The notes: generated from the sequence alone by a model not told the origin. Positions 2,192 to 29,779 are shown, counted from the stretch's first letter. The stretch is DNA of 37,860 nt from a virus (IMGVR_UViG_2541047762_000007); one strand, 5' to 3'. Numbers and translations are program-made.

Positions 2192-2805
2192 TGAGTAACA
2201 CTGCAGTTCTGGATGAAAACGGTATCGCCACTGTAGCGGGCGATATCACTGTATATCACTATGACGAGGAAACCCGGGAATACACCTCATCCTCTGTGGA
2301 GTATCTCGCCCTTGGGGTGGGTACTCCGGCACATTCGTGCGCCGATGCACCGCCGGAAGCAATTTCGGGTTACGTGGTTTGCCGGACTGCCACGCTGAAC
2401 GGGTGGGAGCATGTGCCTGATCACCGCGGCGAGACGGTATACAGCACGGAGAACGGTAACCCCGTTCTGATTACCCAACCGGGTGATTACCCGGCGGACA
2501 CCACCACAAAACAGCCAGCCACGCCATGGGATACCTGGAACGGTGAGGCGTGGGTAACCGATACTGAACGGCAGCGAGCCGCAGAACTGGAGGTTGCCAG
2601 ACAGCAACGCCAGCAACGGGTGAAACAGGCGATGGCGTCCGTCGATCTTATCAACCTCAAACTGCGTGCTGGTCGCAGTCTGAAACCAGAAGAAACGGCA
2701 AAACTGAACGCCGTGCTGGATTATATCGACGAGCTGAACGCACTGGATATCAGCAAGGCACCTGAAATCAGCTGGCCGGAAGCGCCACTGGCGCTTGCCG
2801 GCTGA
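2191..2805 (+). CDS. Tail fibre assembly protein (Tfa/U-like)
   Basis: Position directly after the alternative fibre cassette (TAATG overlap), ~200 aa, composition typical of lambda Tfa / Mu U chaperones. Confidence 0.75.
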   Translation: MSNTAVLDENGIATVAGDITVYHYDEETREYTSSSVEYLALGVGTPAHSCADAPPEAISGYVVCRTATLNGWEHVPDHRGETVYSTENGNPVLITQPGDYPADTTTKQPATPWDTWNGEAWVTDTERQRAAELEVARQQRQQRVKQAMASVDLINLKLRAGRSLKPEETAKLNAVLDYIDELNALDISKAPEISWPEAPLALAG

Positions 2806-2811
2806 ACGGTA

Positions 2812-4398
2812 TCACGCCGCCCTCACGATATAGTTAAATGCGATATTGCGGGGGCGAGCTGATACATAAGCCCACCAGTCATATCTTTGTGCACCTTTAG
2901 AGGATGCATCAAATATCCACTTTTTGCCATTTATGACCCCCAGTTGATTAGAGGTTAAAGCGTCACCAAATCCGTATTGTGTAGAGCCGAGCGAACTGAT
3001 ATCTCCGGTATTATTATCATCAAAACCGGATACGATAGTCCCTTCCTGAAATGAAAGTACCGTACGCCCGGTATCAACCTTGCGACCACCGTCCCATCCA
3101 CGGATAAACTCACCGCGCAAATCGGGAAGACGGAGGGTCGGGTAGACTCTGGCCAGAACAGGATATTGTTCTTTGGTGAACGTAGCTCCGTTGCACTGTA
3201 ACCAGCCTGCTGGCGGTGTGGCGGTGGGCCATGGAACCGGTACACCAACAGGCAATGCAGAGCCTTCCCCCAAACCAAGGTAATTGAGGACATCTTTTAT
3301 ACTGCCCTTAGCGATAATAGCGCGACCAATAGCTGTAAGGGTTGCCAGCGCTGCGCGGTCTGCTCCGGTAAAATAAGGCAACCGATCTGCTGCAGTGGCA
3401 AGTCCTGCCAGAGCAGTGAGCGTGGCATCTGCCGGTTGTTTTCCGTTTGCCAGATCGTATGCAGCCTTGACGGCCTTTGGTGTGGCGGCCAGCGTTTCAG
3501 ACGTGCTGTTGATGGCGCTGCTCAATTGTACGGTGCCTTTTGCCGTCAGCGAGGCAGCAGGCACTCCCGTTATCTGACTCCACGGGTGAGTGTGGCTGAC
3601 GGGCGCCTTGCCGGCTGCAAGGTCGTATGCAGCCTTGACGGCCTTTGGTGTGGCGGCCAGCGTTTCAGACGTGCTGTTGATGGCGCTGCTCAATTGTACG
3701 GTGCCTTTTGCCGTCAGCGAGGCAGCAGGCACTCCCGTTATCTGACTCCACGGGTGAGTGTGGCTGACGGGCGCCTTGCCGGCTGCAAGGTCGTATGCAG
3801 CCTTGACGGCCTTTGGTGTGGCGGCCAGCGTTTCAGACGTGCTGTTGATGGCACTGCTCAGTTGTACGATCCCTTTACGGGTCGTTGTTGCATCCTGGGC
3901 TGTGTATTTTCCCCGGGCCAGATCATACGCGATTTTCACAGCCTTCGGCGTGGCAGCCTCAGTTTCTGATTGACTGTCCGTGGCACTGCTCAGCTGTACG
4001 GTGCCTTTTGCCGTCAGCGAGGCAGCAGGCACTCCCGTTATCTGACTCCACGGGTGAGTGTGACTGACGGGTGCCTTGCCGGCTGCAAGGTCGTATGCAG
4101 CCTTGACGGCTTTTGGTGTGGCGGCCAGCGTTTCAGAGGTGCTGTTGGTGGCACTGCTCAGTTGGGTGAACCCCTTAGCTGTCAGTGTCGCGTCCGGGTG
4201 GTTACGGGAACGTACGTGTTCAGCCAGTGACTGTGCGGCTTCCTCCGTTTTTTTCTTCAGCCATTTCGTCCTGTTTGCCAGTTGCCGGGGGGCTCGATTT
4301 GATATCCCGTCTGCACCACCCAGAACCGGATCTGATGTCTCCAGTTGATAGATATTTTCTTCCCACTTTTCTGTTTCATTCAGGTTTCCCATAATCAA
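2812..4398 (-). CDS. Tail fibre protein with internal tandem repeats
   Basis: 528-aa ORF with repeated fibre motifs (TAKGTVQLSSAxxSTSETLAATPKAVKAAYDLA, SHTHPW). C-terminal part lies inside the invertible segment. Position matches Mu S. Confidence 0.9.
   Translation of the reverse strand: MIMGNLNETEKWEENIYQLETSDPVLGGADGISNRAPRQLANRTKWLKKKTEEAAQSLAEHVRSRNHPDATLTAKGFTQLSSATNSTSETLAATPKAVKAAYDLAAGKAPVSHTHPWSQITGVPAASLTAKGTVQLSSATDSQSETEAATPKAVKIAYDLARGKYTAQDATTTRKGIVQLSSAINSTSETLAATPKAVKAAYDLAAGKAPVSHTHPWSQITGVPAASLTAKGTVQLSSAINSTSETLAATPKAVKAAYDLAAGKAPVSHTHPWSQITGVPAASLTAKGTVQLSSAINSTSETLAATPKAVKAAYDLANGKQPADATLTALAGLATAADRLPYFTGADRAALATLTAIGRAIIAKGSIKDVLNYLGLGEGSALPVGVPVPWPTATPPAGWLQCNGATFTKEQYPVLARVYPTLRLPDLRGEFIRGWDGGRKVDTGRTVLSFQEGTIVSGFDDNNTGDISSLGSTQYGFGDALTSNQLGVINGKKWIFDASSKGAQRYDWWAYVSARPRNIAFNYIVRAA
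3061..3290. repeat. Right inverted repeat of invertible tail-fibre segment (gix-like site at 3265..3290)
   Basis: Reverse complement matches 1674..1889. TTCCCCCAAACCAAGG at 3265..3280 is the inverted partner of the left site. Confidence 0.7.
3440..4200. repeat. 168-bp (56-aa) tandem repeats within tail fibre gene
   Basis: Three near-identical units are in register at ~3455, 3623 and 3791, followed by two more diverged units. The plus-strand shadow ORF 3436..3969 shows the same period. Confidence 0.85.
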
Positions 4399-25341: not shown

Positions 25342-26065
25342 AACTGCTGCCTCCCCATGTGAGATATCGCGGTGCCAGTTCGCGCAGGATGCGCTGCGGA
25401 TAATGGCGGTTCTCCCGCCAGCTGGCCGCATTGCGTCCGGCATTCACCGTGGCGACATGTCCGAACCAGCGGGTGCTGTCCAGACCTTTCTGTGATGCAA
25501 GCCGCCTGTCCCGTTGTACCCAGCCCAGACCACCGTTATAGCCCGACAGTGTCATGGCCATACGCTCGCAGTCACTGGCGGCGCTGACACGCTGCCACAG
25601 CCAGCGGTCATAGCTGACCAGCGCCCGGATAGCCCATGCCGGATTAAACGGCTCACGACTGCTCAGCATCGGTATCAACTGGCTTATCCAGTCGGCAGTG
25701 GCAGGCATGAACTGCGCCAGTCCCTGAGCGCCAGCCGGCGAGATCGCATCAGGTCGCCAGCCGCTTTCCTGATGCAGTTGCGCGGCGAAATCGGCCACCG
25801 GCGCAGACAGTCCCCATTCAAGCCGGGCATTACGGATCACATCATCGCGATACTGCAGCGCAGCCTGCGGAGGTTGTGCTGCGCATGCCTGGCTGAAAAA
25901 GCCGCCACACCAGAGCAACATTGCGACAAAGAATACCCATGCCATATGAACCAGAAAGGTCCCGGCGCGGACTGACAGGCGTTCGGTTCTGATGAAGACC
26001 CGAAAGGCTTCGAAAGCCAGTTTCAGGGACATGCATACAATCCAGGTGATCTGCGGCCAGTTCAT
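25325..26065 (-). CDS. Endolysin, lytic transglycosylase (SLT) type with N-terminal hydrophobic segment
   Basis: SLT catalytic motif (ESGWRPDAISPAGAQGLAQFMPATA) and an N-terminal hydrophobic stretch (MAWVFFVAMLLWCGGFF). Possible alternative start at 25945. Confidence 0.8.
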   Translation of the reverse strand: MNWPQITWIVCMSLKLAFEAFRVFIRTERLSVRAGTFLVHMAWVFFVAMLLWCGGFFSQACAAQPPQAALQYRDDVIRNARLEWGLSAPVADFAAQLHQESGWRPDAISPAGAQGLAQFMPATADWISQLIPMLSSREPFNPAWAIRALVSYDRWLWQRVSAASDCERMAMTLSGYNGGLGWVQRDRRLASQKGLDSTRWFGHVATVNAGRNAASWRENRHYPQRILRELAPRYLTWGGSSCVASG

Positions 26066-26067
26066 GA

Positions 26068-26418
26068 TTAAAGCCCCATCGCAACAGCCAGGCAGACCGC
26101 TGCAACAATCAGTGCACGGCGGATTAACGCAGCAGAAAACACCAGGTGAAGGCCGGTCTGTACCGGGAAACGCCCTTCAGCCATCAGCCTGTCGTCATGT
26201 TTCAGGTACTGACCGGGACGGGCTTTGGGGAAGAGCGAACGGTCAAGCCAGTAACCCAGCACTGCTGCCAGCGTGATGAGTGCCAGCTTGTAGATCACAA
26301 CAGGCAGCTGCTGTGGTGAGACCAGAGCGATGGTGCCCAGCAACAGCACTGAGGTCAGCAGCCAGCCGCTGAGGCGAGGTTTTTTAACAGGGGGAATGAA
26401 TTTTTTCAGGTTTTTCAT
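26068..26418 (-). CDS. Putative holin (three transmembrane segments)
   Basis: 116 aa from the ATG at 26418 (AAGGAGACACAC upstream), three hydrophobic helices, immediately upstream of endolysin. An in-frame upstream start at 26448/26451 is possible. Confidence 0.6.
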   Translation of the reverse strand: MKNLKKFIPPVKKPRLSGWLLTSVLLLGTIALVSPQQLPVVIYKLALITLAAVLGYWLDRSLFPKARPGQYLKHDDRLMAEGRFPVQTGLHLVFSAALIRRALIVAAVCLAVAMGL

Positions 26419-26548
26419 GTGTGTCTCCTTATCTGGTGGAGACAGCATCACAAATACAGGGCGCGAAGGATTTTAAAGCGCGTTAAGAGAGCCGGGGATA
26501 CGGGATGTGCAGGATAAACGATGAATTATTCACAGAGGAGAATACGAT

Positions 26549-27025
26549 ATGACGCAGACACTGAATCCGGTCATCACTGTCACCGTGTCCGGTCCTGTGG
26601 GCAGCGGTAAAAGTTACATATTGGCGCGGATAGAGGAAGTGGTGAAACAGGAATTCGGAAACAGCGTCATTGTCGATGCTGCTGACGTGGAGAATGAGCG
26701 CCGTATGAATGGCGAAGATCTGACGACCTGGCAGAAGCCACGGGGTGGCACAGTGATCAGGCTAGAGGAATACACGGGACAGGGCCTGTTGTCATACGGC
26801 GAGGAGCGTATCTGTCGGACGAATGAGCTGCTGGATGTTATATGCCCCACGGGCCGGCAACCCTGGATACTGCCCGATGCACTGCATGCCACCATTGCGG
26901 CACTGATGACAGTTTACGATCAGGAGCTGCTCATGAAGGAGTTACGTAAACTCACCGGTCAGCCAACAGAATGTTGTTCGTCTCCGAAGTACGGCAAACA
27001 GGAAAACGCCCCGGATAATCCTTAA
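26549..27025 (+). CDS. Small P-loop (Walker A) protein, unknown function
   Basis: 158 aa with GPVGSGKS Walker A and a possible Walker B (VIVDAAD). Strong SD (AGAGGAG); on the opposite strand to the late operon. Confidence 0.6.
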   Translation: MTQTLNPVITVTVSGPVGSGKSYILARIEEVVKQEFGNSVIVDAADVENERRMNGEDLTTWQKPRGGTVIRLEEYTGQGLLSYGEERICRTNELLDVICPTGRQPWILPDALHATIAALMTVYDQELLMKELRKLTGQPTECCSSPKYGKQENAPDNP

Positions 27026-27044
27026 GATACCTCCTGAACAGAAA

Positions 27045-27060
27045 CAGCCCTGAAGGGCTG
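27045..27060. terminator. Hairpin between convergent genes (likely terminator for 27063..27653)
   Basis: CAGCCC-TGAA-GGGCTG stem-loop; on the minus strand it is followed by TTTCTGTT. Confidence 0.5.
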
Positions 27061-27062
27061 CA

Positions 27063-27653
27063 CTAAAAAAAGAAGTGTATTATTGCCCAAACAGCTATAA
27101 CGATGATTCCCAGCCCAAGAGCCGATTCTAACTTATCTTTGGCAGTCATTTTTACTGTTGTAGCGGGCGCAGGTAAGTCTTGCTGCTGTGGATTTTCTGT
27201 TAGTTGTTTACGAGAAGAAACATCGCCCCTGTTAGTTTGCTTCATGTTGATTACAGATGCGTTATGGGCATTATCAGCAGCAATTGACTGAAGTTTTACA
27301 AAAGTTTTTGAATCTGTTTTAGCCAGAAGTAACCTATTTCCCGTAAACATTGCCTTAAAAGTGATAGTTTTTTTCGTCTTGTCCGCCGCACCAAGCAAAC
27401 CTCCAATGACCAACCCTGCACCACCAAAGATTAATCCACCAAGCAAACCTGCGCCTGCCGCCTTACCTATACGGCTTTCCTCTTCACTATCCGCAAGTTC
27501 AATCGATAAAAGCTCTTCTTTCAGATTTAATACAATATTTTCAGGAAAGCCTTGTTTTGGTTTTTTGGCAAACACGATGGTACCGAACCCCATGCTTGCC
27601 CACCCTTTAGGAAAACTTCCTGCGATAACCTGAATCCCTGCCATGTTCATCAC
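27063..27653 (-). CDS. Glycine-zipper membrane protein, unknown function
   Basis: 196 aa, AT-rich codons, central GxxxG-rich hydrophobic region (AAGAGLLGGLIFGGAGLVIGGLLGAA) and C-terminal transmembrane helix. Confidence 0.55.
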   Translation of the reverse strand: MMNMAGIQVIAGSFPKGWASMGFGTIVFAKKPKQGFPENIVLNLKEELLSIELADSEEESRIGKAAGAGLLGGLIFGGAGLVIGGLLGAADKTKKTITFKAMFTGNRLLLAKTDSKTFVKLQSIAADNAHNASVINMKQTNRGDVSSRKQLTENPQQQDLPAPATTVKMTAKDKLESALGLGIIVIAVWAIIHFFF

Positions 27654-27734
27654 CTTTTACATTAAAATTTCAGAACGCAGCATGATGCCGCCTTTGTCTT
27701 TTTTCTGATCCCATGGTAATTCAGCTGTTATTTT

Positions 27735-28721
27735 CTATTTAAGAATAAAACGGTACTTACTGTCAGGAGTGCTTTGCTGATCAAGTAGCAGTGAACGACA
27801 TGGAGCAGTCAAAACCCGAGCATAACTACCATCAGGGCTTATGTTAATGTAACAAACCTTGCCCTTAACACTATAATTTTCGGGGACGGATGCCTTTGCT
27901 GATACAGTAAATTTAAGGGTATGCCAGCCCGTTTTTTGCTTGTAGCTTGAAACCGAATGGAAATCATCTGAGTACTTATTTAACCCTGGAAACATGCTGC
28001 GCAGTGCGGGGATGGAATCTTCTATTATTTTATCGTTGGTTTTAATGTTAAAAACGCTGGTTTCAGTAGAAGCTACTGCTTTGGCATTTCCCCATTTACC
28101 AGCGAACACAATCATTCCCACGAAAAATATTGCTACAAGAACTAACACTCCCCCCAACACTACTACATGAGGCTTCCGGCTTCTGGTTGGTACAGTTGCG
28201 ACTGATTTTGCACCGCTTTCCGATGGAGGTGATAGAGTTTTACTCTCATCACGAATATTCAGCAGATCATCAAAATAACCAAACACAGCCTGCAACTGCT
28301 CTTTGTCTAGGCCTTTAAGATGGGTTGTACCGAAATGCTTCAGACAGTATCTGTCACGGTCAAGACGATACCCAGGGTCAGTAAGCGCCATTATTTTGCT
28401 GACCAGAAGATTACAGTCCTTCATATTCTGGATCTGTTGTGCATATCTCTGAAGGATCTCAACCGCACCATGATAATCAGCCGCAGTCATTTCATTAACT
28501 GTTTTGGTATTAAGTTTCGTGTGGATCGTCATCCATAGCTCGCGCTTACTTTCCCCCAGATCAACCAATTCATCCATCAATCTGTGTAAATCGCGTTTTT
28601 GCAGCAACGAAATTGGTTGCTGGGCCGAAGGAAGTATGTCAGCAGAATAGTTATGAATGGTAACATCACCGCTGACAACGTTACCCACATCCCCGTTAAC
28701 TGTTTGCTTCTCTTTACTCAT
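27735..28721 (-). CDS. Bitopic membrane protein co-transcribed with repressor (candidate superinfection-exclusion/defence protein)
   Basis: 328 aa, start overlaps repressor stop. Single transmembrane helix (HVVVLGGVLVLVAIFFVGMIVFAGKW) splits an ~185-aa N-terminal domain from an ~120-aa C-terminal domain. N-terminal motif GDVGNVVSGDVTI echoes the repressor C-terminus. Confidence 0.6.
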   Translation of the reverse strand: MSKEKQTVNGDVGNVVSGDVTIHNYSADILPSAQQPISLLQKRDLHRLMDELVDLGESKRELWMTIHTKLNTKTVNEMTAADYHGAVEILQRYAQQIQNMKDCNLLVSKIMALTDPGYRLDRDRYCLKHFGTTHLKGLDKEQLQAVFGYFDDLLNIRDESKTLSPPSESGAKSVATVPTRSRKPHVVVLGGVLVLVAIFFVGMIVFAGKWGNAKAVASTETSVFNIKTNDKIIEDSIPALRSMFPGLNKYSDDFHSVSSYKQKTGWHTLKFTVSAKASVPENYSVKGKVCYINISPDGSYARVLTAPCRSLLLDQQSTPDSKYRFILK

Positions 28722-29179
28722 CTTCTCTTGGTATTTTTGTTCATTATTCCACCTGTTCCTATGGTTACGTTACCTTTGATAACATTCCCCAGAACATCTC
28801 CATGAATAACCTGTTCCGCCCGTTCTCTGGAGGAGCCAGTAGTCAAGGCCGACAAAACTGAACCTTTGACCTGTAATGGTGCCTGCCGGTAGTGCTGCAG
28901 TAACTCCATTTCATCACGTGATAAAGTTATACCTGATGACTCCCCGGTAAGAATGAACTGTACATTGGCCCCAATTCTTGCAAAGGCTGCAAGTAACTCA
29001 CCTCCGGGAACAGCAACCCCTCGTTCATATTTCCCCCACATTTCTCTTGAAACGCCACAAAGGGCTGCTACTTCAGCCTGCTTGAGTGATAACCGCGAAC
29101 GCTCAGCTTTGAACCGCGACGCGCAAAGAGAATCAAAATTCACATAAACCTCATTGACAATGAGAACAATAGTTCTCAT
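28718..29179 (-). CDS. XRE/Cro-C1-type HTH repressor (immunity repressor candidate)
   Basis: HTH segment LSLKQAEVAALCGVSREMWGKYERG; divergent from the early operon. True start may be the GTG at 29143, since operator-like palindromes cover 29150..29179. Confidence 0.75.
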   Translation of the reverse strand: MRTIVLIVNEVYVNFDSLCASRFKAERSRLSLKQAEVAALCGVSREMWGKYERGVAVPGGELLAAFARIGANVQFILTGESSGITLSRDEMELLQHYRQAPLQVKGSVLSALTTGSSRERAEQVIHGDVLGNVIKGNVTIGTGGIMNKNTKRR

Positions 29180-29182
29180 AAT
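29150..29182. promoter_or_regulatory. Operator-like palindromes overlapping early promoter
   Basis: Perfect palindromes CTCATTG-A-CAATGAG (29150..29164) and ATGAGAAC-AATA-GTTCTCAT (29160..29179). Consensus -35 TTGACA at 29154..29159 and CATAAT at 29177..29182 with 17-bp spacing, facing the Ner/Cro-like gene. Confidence 0.6.
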
Positions 29183-29229
29183 CTATCACATATAAAACAA
29201 ACATCATTGCATCAACAAAGGAGACAACA

Positions 29230-29418
29230 ATGACTTCCGAACAAGTTAAAAATCTCTTCCGTCAGCGTGGTATCACGTTTACCCGCTGGGCCGAAGAACA
29301 CGGCTACAGCCGCAATGAGGTCTATCGTGTTCTCAATGGACAGACCAAAGCTCGTTACGGCAAAGCCCATGAAATTGCCGTAAAACTGGGATTAAAACCC
29401 ACGTCAAATGCGGCATAA
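29230..29418 (+). CDS. Ner/Cro-like small DNA-binding early regulator
   Basis: 62-aa basic protein, first gene of the rightward operon, divergent from repressor; SD AAAGGAGA upstream. Confidence 0.65.
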   Translation: MTSEQVKNLFRQRGITFTRWAEEHGYSRNEVYRVLNGQTKARYGKAHEIAVKLGLKPTSNAA

Positions 29419-29470
29419 ATTTTCCACATATGCAACAGGTTATCACATATTGCAAAAATGGAAATGTGAC

Positions 29471-29779
29471 ATGAGTAAAGTAAATATTTCCAGTTCTGGG
29501 AGCCGCATCCTACGTGTACTCAAAGCTCTACGCGGTCATGCTCTGAACGGTGTTTCTAACGGTGAACTGGCATCAGCCCTGGGGGAGTCCCCGGCGAATA
29601 TCAATCGAGCACTTAATACCCTTATTGAAGAGGGACTGGCCATGAAATTAGAGAACGGACGTTTCGCACCGGGAATCCAGTTACTACAGATCGCCATGGC
29701 TCACAGTCACGAGATGGCGCGTGCACAGGATCGTATTAACGAAATCAACCAACGAGTTATTTCAGGTAGTCGTTTGTAA
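29471..29779 (+). CDS. Winged-helix DNA-binding protein (putative regulator)
   Basis: Start taken at ATG 29471 (MSKVNISS...); wHTH-like segment LRVLKALRGHALNGVSNGELASALGESPANINRALNTLIEEGLA. Confidence 0.5.
   Translation: MSKVNISSSGSRILRVLKALRGHALNGVSNGELASALGESPANINRALNTLIEEGLAMKLENGRFAPGIQLLQIAMAHSHEMARAQDRINEINQRVISGSRL

Follow-up and report, generated by a model that had tools for sequence, protein, structure and literature searches.

A prophage immunity repressor and the membrane protein encoded next to it carry matching, co-varying peptide motifs

We describe an immunity repressor gene and its downstream neighbour, ORF3, from the E. coli BcepMu-like transposable prophage that makes up the whole of the stretch IMGVR_UViG_2541047762_000007 (37,860 nucleotides, the window), and compare this pair with the closest described systems. 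The first of these are the bacterial amyloid-signalling (BASS) motifs, which are about 25 amino acids (aa) long, enriched in Q, N, G, V and I, and depleted of K, P and L (Dyrka et al., bioRxiv 10.1101/2020.01.06.895854). In Bab/Agp, a BASS11 pair from E. coli prophage hotspots, the motif is C-terminal in one gene and N-terminal in the adjacent one (bioRxiv 10.1101/2024.11.07.622273). The second is Flk (Fluke, RflH) of Salmonella and E. coli, a tail-anchored cytoplasmic protein holding the flagellar export apparatus in the early secretion mode (PMC13344023). The ORF3 protein has a domain homologous to a part of Flk and, close to its N-terminus, a motif shared with the repressor.

Other relevant systems are related by gene order and by the role of the repressor tail. 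Lysogen-expressed genes on the repressor transcript are represented by lambda cI-rexA-rexB and sieB, lactococcal sie2009 and glo of Vibrio phage K139, the latter being an exclusion gene situated between the repressor and the integrase. In ICEBs1, the repressor ImmR has a dedicated regulator, ImmA, encoded alongside. In phage Mu, the C-terminal tail of the repressor governs its degradation by ClpXP.

A preliminary description of the window, made from the sequence alone, had placed an AT-rich accessory island of three uncharacterised genes between the lysis cassette and the repressor. The three open reading frames (ORF1, ORF2 and ORF3) are indeed present, but they do not form a single island: the region consists of a backbone gene (ORF1), an immunity module (the repressor and ORF3) and an exchangeable, probably lysogen-expressed cargo gene (ORF2). 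The parts of the immunity module are as follows.

28718-29179, minus strand: XRE-type immunity repressor (Pfam HTH_31, E=4.7e-7), longest ORF 153 aa
28748-28810, minus strand: motif VIHGDVLGNVIKGNVTIGTGG in the C-terminal tail of the repressor, aa 124-144, followed by the basic end MNKNTKRR
27735-28721, minus strand: ORF3, a 328-aa bitopic inner-membrane protein
28650-28697, minus strand: N-terminal motif of ORF3, NGDVGNVVSGDVTIHN, aa 9-24, the best-conserved stretch of the family
28242-28631, minus strand: Flk_N domain of ORF3, aa ~31-160, helical, cytoplasmic
28092-28169, minus strand: single transmembrane segment of ORF3, aa ~185-210
27738-28061, minus strand: periplasmic alpha/beta domain of ORF3, aa ~221-328, with invariant cysteines C290 and C308

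The start of ORF3 and the stop of the repressor overlap by 4 bp (ATGA at 28718-28721). The same overlap downstream of the repressor is observed for the ORF3 homologues in every locus examined, from E. coli, Serratia, Yersinia and metagenomes; thus the two genes are syntenic and translationally coupled. ORF3 had been suggested to be co-transcribed with the repressor. ORF3 and ORF2 apparently share its transcript and are probably expressed in lysogens, given the same strand, the overlap and the absence of an intervening terminator: neither terminator-like sites from the repressor through the end of ORF2 nor a strong internal promoter within this stretch were found.

The C-terminal tail of the repressor carries a motif of the ORF3 type, GDVLGNVIKGNVTI. 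The shared part reads HGDVLGNVIKGNVTIG in the repressor tail and NGDVGNVVSGDVTIH in the ORF3 head; the score of this match, 40, was reached by 4 of 2,000 shuffles. In the six-frame translation of the window, a motif of this type occurs at two places only, the repressor tail and the ORF3 head. The tail motif is nearly invariant in the repressors of E. coli, Serratia and Yersinia that have differing helix-turn-helix (HTH) domains. The alignment of the ORF3 family (A1: 18 Enterobacterales sequences from E. coli, Morganella, Salmonella, Yersinia and Serratia, 44-82% identical) begins with the invariant N-terminal motif GDVGNVVSGDVTI and continues with a helical domain and a variable linker, where the one transmembrane segment lies, up to the C-terminal domain. 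Residues G10, G13, N14, V15, V16, S17, G18, V20 and I22 of the motif are invariant in all eighteen sequences.

A search of 1.84 billion representative proteins yielded only 114 relatives. Most of them are 190-220 aa long and consist of an N-terminal G/N-rich motif, the Flk_N domain and a C-terminal tail anchor, and some have a second pseudo-repeat of the motif. True Flk proteins appeared in the same search with E around 1e-4 and two matching stretches, the motif being absent. In distant clades the upstream gene again encodes an XRE repressor, whose tail has the clade's own version of the motif. In one such pair the repressor ends with ...GNRVAGRDYNENKK and the partner head is M..QNRVAGRDFNEN (at length, ...SGQGNRVAGRDYNENKK and M..SGEQNRVAGRDFNEN, respectively), and in another one the tail QQFNGPVGSVTSGDVVN (also given as GQQFNGPVGSVTSGDVVN) is combined with the head QQFNGAVEQVAAGDIKN. 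With the repressor alignment as the query, the Flk_N partner was found directly downstream in 61 of 80 IMG/VR loci. Overall, the pattern of tail and head is repeated in 48 unique repressor-partner pairs, with at least 12 distinct motif versions co-varying between the two proteins. The co-variation was assessed by scoring 13 representative pairs all against all (13 x 13 matrix), twelve of them with a Flk_N partner and one with a partner of another type. The mean score was 44.5 for cognate pairs and 25.6 (standard deviation 8.1) for non-cognate ones, with a permutation p-value of about 1e-5.

At that, the repressor tail follows the partner and not the DNA-binding domain. In two loci (L032 and L136) the HTH domain of the repressor is 57% identical to that in the window, yet the tail and the partner are both of the NRxAGRD type. 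In E. coli R4, where the repressor lacks the tail, the Flk_N partner is also missing. The same codon is used at only 43% of identical motif residues, and no DNA repeat linking the stretches coding for the tail and the head was found. Since the codons are not conserved between the copies, the selection acts on the peptide; on the same grounds, the low codon identity and the lack of a linking repeat, gene conversion was rejected as the origin of the match. Thus the conserved overlap and the co-varying shared peptide tie ORF3 to one type of repressor, and so point to a functional partnership: ORF3 is likely to be a conserved partner of the repressor and not interchangeable cargo of the rexAB kind, as had been suggested for it.

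The arrangement resembles that of the BASS pairs and of the fungal NWD2/HET-S system, in that one protein (the repressor, aa 124-144) has the motif C-terminally and the protein encoded next to it (ORF3, aa 9-24) has it N-terminally. The length and the composition are similar as well. The matched segments in ungapped alignments cover 7-22 aa within conserved stretches of about 18-28 aa, and, relative to assumed background frequencies, the motifs are enriched in G (2.3-fold), N (2.6-fold), Q (2.1-fold), V (1.8-fold) and I (1.6-fold) and depleted of K (0.3), P (0.3) and L (0.2). As in the BASS pairs, the motif differs between families and matches within a pair. Unlike the BASS pairs, ORF3 is not an NLR-like receptor, as it combines Flk_N with the transmembrane segment and the periplasmic domain, and no NTPase or repeat domain was found in it; the C-terminal motif resides on an HTH_31/XRE repressor instead of a Bell/HeLo cell-death effector; and the module lies in the immunity region of temperate phages. 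Our literature search found no description of a Flk-like phage protein, of a repressor with a membrane partner, or of a glycine-zipper prophage gene. Apparently, no phage repressor has so far been described as sharing such a motif with a partner protein, and the pair at hand would be a new context for signalling motifs paired at protein termini.

ImmR/ImmA offers another parallel, as in both cases an XRE-type repressor is directly followed by a gene dedicated to it. However, no protease motif or domain is seen in ORF3, and the coupling appears to proceed via a duplicated peptide, not via an enzyme and its substrate. In the use of the C-terminal tail as a regulatory handle, the repressor resembles that of Mu.

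The single transmembrane segment of ORF3, and hence its description as a 328-aa bitopic protein, stands: the Kyte-Doolittle profile (19-residue window) has a peak of 3.05 over aa 181-213, and the AlphaFold2 model has a helix at aa 188-207. In this model both domains have the predicted local distance difference test score (pLDDT) above 90, Flk_N being all helical, and the confidence is low for aa 1-30 and the linker. A Foldseek search of the model against the PDB gave nothing below E=0.1; the top match in BFVD, a weak one (E=8e-4), is an ORF6C-domain protein.

The Flk_N domain was identified by the match to NCBIfam NF007987 (Flk), with E=2.9e-12 and 46.6 bits at profile positions 14-143 of 339. 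Pfam PF27202 (Flk_N) is precomputed on members of the ORF3 family, and BLASTP aligns ORF3 with E. coli K-12 Flk at 25% identity over 133 aa (E=1e-5). As the NF007987 model demands a full-length match above the cut-off of 353 bits, ORF3 was rejected as a Flk equivalog. In common with Flk, ORF3 has a homologous helical domain facing the cytoplasm and anchored in the inner membrane, and the short phage homologues P0022 and P0041 are C-terminally tail-anchored. On the other hand, ORF3 has one copy of the domain compared to two in Flk, and an additional N-terminal motif that is absent from the Flk hits; its transmembrane segment is internal (aa 185-210), with a 118-aa exported domain after it; and it is encoded by a phage beside the repressor, while flk is located between pdxB and yfcJ on the chromosome.

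The C-terminal domain of ORF3 is predicted to be extracytoplasmic. In two loci (L015 and L016) a homologous domain forms a separate 177-aa lipoprotein (E=8e-15), encoded directly after a 197-aa tail-anchored Flk_N protein, and a lipobox is present in 22 of 41 stand-alone homologues of the domain. Of 170 partner loci, only 33 have it, 30 as a fusion with the partner and three as a gene of its own, and so it was ruled out as a general feature of the family.

Small lipoproteins (with lipoboxes such as LAGCASSG and LLAGCGDK) are often encoded after the tail-anchored partner, e.g. L128:3549-3953 and in L112, L114 and L115. The profile of the ORF3 periplasmic domain does not match these lipoproteins. 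Different exported proteins may fill the slot after the tail-anchored partner.

The balance of these data tips, if only slightly, towards a reading in which the tail and the head associate directly and ORF3 makes lysogeny responsive to a signal from the envelope. The tail of the repressor and the head of its partner would bind strand against strand, in a beta- or amyloid-like manner, similar to the BASS motif pairs, and a part of the repressor pool would thereby be held or converted at the inner membrane. Since the partner in this prophage also has a periplasmic domain, we read ORF3 as a candidate envelope sensor, with this domain feeding the signal to the repressor activity. The most likely outcome would be inactivation of the repressor and induction of the prophage, the direction being a guess; the opposite outcome, with the repressor stabilised or its pool kept at the membrane, could also be envisaged.

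A more specific proposal is that the tail and the head form an amyloid-like (prion-type) pair: clustering of the partner on an envelope or periplasmic cue would template the repressor tails into an inactive assembly, yielding an irreversible lysogeny switch. We consider this rather doubtful. If true, it would mean RecA-independent, self-propagating induction common to BcepMu-like and P2-like phages of Beta- and Gammaproteobacteria. To our knowledge, the induction of many Mu-like and P2-like prophages is poorly understood, and their repressors are generally not subject to RecA-dependent cleavage. A repressor and a membrane partner with matching peptides suggest that the cell envelope may act on the lysogeny decision directly, and, should the motif act as amyloid-signalling motifs do, this mechanism would extend from cell-death immunity to viral transcriptional control.

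Several observations weigh against an envelope signal transmitted by direct association. The periplasmic domain is missing in 137 of 170 partner loci, and therefore envelope sensing cannot be the general function of the family. The ORF3 motif is disordered in the monomer model (pLDDT about 42), and neither domain of the partner is a known amyloid-signalling domain such as NLR or Bell. In the cognate matrix, just 7 of the 13 rows and 8 of the 13 columns have their highest score on the diagonal; because of the off-diagonal maxima in the others, the similarity is partly a generic consensus. In one clade (L153, L155, L159, L162 and L163) a partner-like gene has a G/N-rich motif (e.g. IKIKGNHGNINLGTQNF), and the repressor is tail-less, ending with ...VLKLVVNR; the downstream protein here has an extra N-terminal helix, and its assignment to the partner family was made by eye, the score being below the hidden Markov model threshold used. 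Finally, the same phage backbone also works with immunity modules that lack the partner.

The module is found in phages of two kinds. BcepMu-like phages are represented by L127, L128, L169, L171, L175 and L190, whereas in the P2-like phages L061 and L146 the order is repressor, partner, sometimes one extra gene, and integrase. The initial assumption that all partner-bearing contigs of about 35 kb are Mu-like proved wrong, as several are P2-like with the integrase downstream. One further P2-like example is Escherichia phage 520873 (L197, NC_049344.1), where an unannotated gene of the partner family (2468-3065, minus strand) lies between integrase fragments and the repressor gp04. The tblastn match to this gene comes in three pieces, and the integrase is split into two coding sequences; judging by this alignment, the partner is probably frameshifted. 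Named hosts of the module include E. coli, Pectobacterium, Pseudomonas and Chitiniphilus, and the respective database entries are "hypothetical" or automatically named "flagella biosynthesis regulator". A search for relatives of clade A10 in IMG/VR found none.

In two IMG/VR loci (L144:2261-3380 and L170:2480-3353) the repressor tail ...GQVSAENIYNIGVKRKR matches the head M..VGQVAANNIYNIYI of a downstream protein of 151-153 aa, which is not recognised by the Flk_N profiles. The tail-to-head pairing may thus extend to other types of partners.

The genes surrounding the module, and the candidate terminator, are the following.

26068-26451, minus strand: holin (Holin_2-3, E=1.5e-41)
26549-27025, plus strand: ORF1, a 158-aa small protein with the Walker-A motif GPVGSGKS
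27044-27061, minus strand: GC-rich hairpin of 7 base pairs, 5 of them G-C, followed by a T-run, between the convergent ORF1 and ORF2; a consensus match only
27063-27644, minus strand: ORF2, a 193-aa PH_gly_zipper membrane protein
29230-29418, plus strand: ner-like gene (phrog_925), divergent from the repressor
Alongside the ner-like gene, plus strand: IclR-type HTH gene, DUF3102 gene and transposase, also diverging from the repressor
Structural genes and lysis cassette: minus strand

Thus, the holin is followed by ORF1 on the plus strand, and then by ORF2, ORF3 and the XRE repressor, all on the minus strand. Judging from the sequence, the hairpin is likely to be the terminator of the repressor-ORF3-ORF2 transcript.

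The ORF2 gene encodes a membrane protein with a glycine zipper at aa 62-87 and, by the hydropathy profile, a C-terminal transmembrane segment at aa 171-193, in agreement with its initial characterisation. Its start is probably the ATG at 27644, yielding 193 aa, slightly downstream of the start given in the preliminary description, 27653, because it is preceded by the ribosome-binding site AAAGGTGA, RefSeq has the same start, and the homologues begin with MAGI. Pfam PF27000 (PH_gly_zipper) is assigned via close homologues with precomputed matches (P0025, P0028, P0032, P0033, P0036 and P0038, some marked as weak). ORF2 also matches phrog_12025 of unknown function. The AlphaFold2 model is poor (mean pLDDT of only 55.6), with six strands followed by a helix and a disordered insert at aa 57-89; the strand pattern and the C-terminal helix in this model fit a PH-like fold. 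Neither Foldseek against the PDB nor PADLOC gave a significant match.

An exact direct repeat of 14 nucleotides, CACCAAGCAAACCT, is located in the part of ORF2 coding for the glycine zipper (27389-27402 and 27437-27450, 48 nucleotides apart) and probably reflects the repetitive peptide.

ORF2 comes and goes. It is absent in Serratia (L006 and L013), and its slot is occupied by an unrelated 249-aa gene in Yersinia (L007) and an unrelated 203-aa gene in E. coli 510016 (L004). In Citrobacter (L009-L012) a 71%-identical homologue lies behind a different, CI-type repressor in the absence of ORF3. No named defence or exclusion family was found for the alternative cargo genes in the scans of Pfam, NCBIfam, PHROG and PADLOC. 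Situated downstream of the immunity genes, ORF2 alone among these genes behaves as exchangeable cargo, probably expressed in lysogens, and this fits a moron or an exclusion-type role. Its likely site of action is the inner membrane of lysogens; a role in exclusion or membrane perturbation is suggested with low confidence.

It is possible, although unlikely, that ORF3, with or without ORF2, is itself a membrane effector of exclusion or abortive infection, produced from the repressor transcript and triggered by the repressor or its tail, which would template the ORF3 motif, as Agp does to Bab, and so turn on an activity at the membrane by which superinfection is blocked or aborted. The position of both genes on the apparent lysogenic transcript agrees with this, as does the shared-motif logic of Bab/Agp, an abortive-infection pair of E. 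coli prophage hotspots. ORF2 contributes its place in the cargo slot and its glycine zipper, an element known from pore-forming proteins, and the partner of the P2-like loci retrieved is placed between repressor and integrase, as glo is in K139. ORF3 and ORF2 also resemble the Rex, Sie and glo genes in being located directly downstream of the repressor, apparently co-transcribed with it, and in encoding membrane proteins. However, they have no sequence or profile similarity to these genes, and ORF3 was rejected as a Rex or Sie family protein, as no homology to RexA, RexB, SieA, SieB or other exclusion proteins was found. No PADLOC, Pfam or PHROG match ties the genes to an exclusion or defence family, and the cytoplasmic domain of ORF3 has its relative in Flk, which is tail-anchored, regulatory and non-toxic. 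Moreover, exclusion genes are usually swappable, whereas ORF3 co-evolves with and is fixed to one type of repressor, only ORF2 being exchangeable.

An alternative that we regard as improbable is a shared recognition tag. In this case the motif is bound by some other protein, which may come from the host (a protease or an adaptor) or from a phage (an antirepressor), and the ORF3 copy serves as a membrane decoy or competitor setting the stability of the repressor. The repressor tail sits just ahead of the basic C-terminal end (MNKNTKRR, NENKK, GRKKK), the ClpXP-controlled tail of the Mu repressor provides a precedent, and the top BFVD match of the ORF3 model (E=8e-4) is to ORF6C, a domain of phage antirepressor-type proteins. 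On the other hand, two unlike versions of the motif exist in E. coli, GDV in the window and NRxAGRD in phage 520873 and P0062, which argues against a fixed host site, and the window has no third copy of the motif.

Direct association of the tail and the head also has to be compared with no interaction at all, that is, with the motifs stemming from one ancestral duplication and each serving its own protein, e.g. in self-oligomerisation, so that ORF3 is a conserved gene of no assigned role. The generic consensus F.G.VGQV..GD[IV].N is seen in many clades, the off-diagonal scores are not zero, and one clade combines a motif-bearing gene of the partner family with a motif-less repressor. Still, the similarity is specific to the motif version, although outside the motif both proteins retain no more than 25-40% identity, the codons are not shared between the copies, and the tail follows the partner across HTH swaps; hence we find this explanation very hard to accept.

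Least of all do we expect ORF3 to be a mimic of Flk whose Flk_N domain acts on the flagellar type III export gate and alters flagellation of the lysogen, for example against flagellotropic phages: the homology to the N-terminal repeat of Flk, the tail anchor that short family members share with Flk, and the ability of Flk to keep the export apparatus in the early secretion mode are opposed by the identity of only 25%, the score of 46.6 bits, far under the NCBIfam cut-off of 353, the single repeat of ORF3 compared to the two stretches in which Flk proteins match the profile, and the co-variation of the motif with the repressor tail, which is left unexplained.

The repressor itself has two candidate starts. 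From the ATG at 29179 it would be 153 aa long, and from the GTG at 29143 it would have 141 aa, as annotated in E. coli 510016. Within the longer ORF, on the plus strand at 29154-29182, is the best sigma-70-like site of the region (TTGACA-17-CATAAT, 11 of 12 matches), directed towards the ner-like gene. The position of this site favours the shorter repressor, and the real start may be GTG 29143. Nearly all repressor tails end, after the motif, with a short basic run, such as MNKNTKRR (28718-28747), NENKK, VGRKKK, GGSKGKK and DKRKKKPI, which could contact DNA or the membrane, or be a protease tag.

The ORF1 gene is correctly described as coding for a small Walker-A protein on the opposite strand: GPVGSGKS is present, and all matches to P-loop families are below the Pfam and NCBIfam cut-offs. 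It matches phrog_3787 (function unknown) at positions 1-157 of 242 with E=1e-107. In RefSeq this gene is named "ABC transporter ATPase". This name is unjustified, since the Walker-A match is the sole ground for it: only that region matches PF00005 (E=0.2), the NCBIfam ABC models give E of 0.02 or weaker with cut-offs above 200 bits, and the protein is only 158 aa long. A longer form of 242 or 247 aa exists, e.g. in phage PhiKM and E. coli R4. The 158-aa form with the same ending recurs in a diverged, 84%-identical prophage locus (L015), which excludes a one-off truncation. The homologues of ORF1 form 32 clusters, mostly from E. coli, with no Pfam domain. As the preliminary description had stated, none of the three genes can be linked to a named defence family: the best PADLOC match (E=0.0016) covers the P-loop only, and all PHROG matches are of unknown function. 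Sequence searches in the PDB were empty.

Escherichia phage PhiKM, of the genus Bcepmuvirus, shares 97.6% identity with window positions 26000-27013. The segment 26000-29500 is present at 99.6% identity or higher in 98 of 5,426 complete E. coli genomes, and hence the block is real and neither a sequencing artefact nor a set of ORFs created by errors. Some part of this segment is matched in 636 genomes. About 480 further E. coli genomes match only the first ~1,014 bases, that is, the holin and ORF1, and have other genes thereafter, so the three genes are not conserved as a unit. Since ORF1 is common to these genomes and, in relatives, is typically followed on the same strand by a Dam methylase gene, it belongs to the conserved backbone of E. 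coli BcepMu-like prophages and lies outside the island.

The composition agrees with this division. The block 27026-29229 has a GC content of 0.431, with 0.555 and 0.538 in the flanks, and the values for individual genes are 0.541 for ORF1, 0.423 for ORF2, 0.430 for ORF3 and 0.459 for the repressor. Thus the low-GC block, the variable part of the prophage, comprises ORF2, ORF3 and the repressor; ORF1 is not a part of it. No RNA family was found in the Rfam scan of 26000-29600.

Database annotations need revision in several places: the RefSeq name of ORF1, the UniProt name "flagella biosynthesis regulator" of the ORF3 family, and the unannotated partner gene in Escherichia phage 520873.

Two E. 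coli variants differ from the window in gene content. In E. coli R4 (L005:7883-9712, NZ_CP107182.1), the one variant inspected among the ~480 genomes with only the holin and ORF1 in common, which are the commoner E. coli variants, the counterpart of window positions 27063-29179 contains the tail-less HTH repressor and then an unrelated two-gene cassette, one gene of which encodes a soluble protein (297 aa) and the other a multi-pass membrane protein (139 aa); no Pfam or PADLOC match was found for either protein. In E. coli A33 (L003, NZ_CP028742.1), ORF1 is missing, and an unannotated gap of about 450 nucleotides (1919-2376) is seen beside the holin. ORF2, ORF3 and the repressor are retained in this genome; the HTH domain of the repressor has diverged, and its tail is identical to that in the window.

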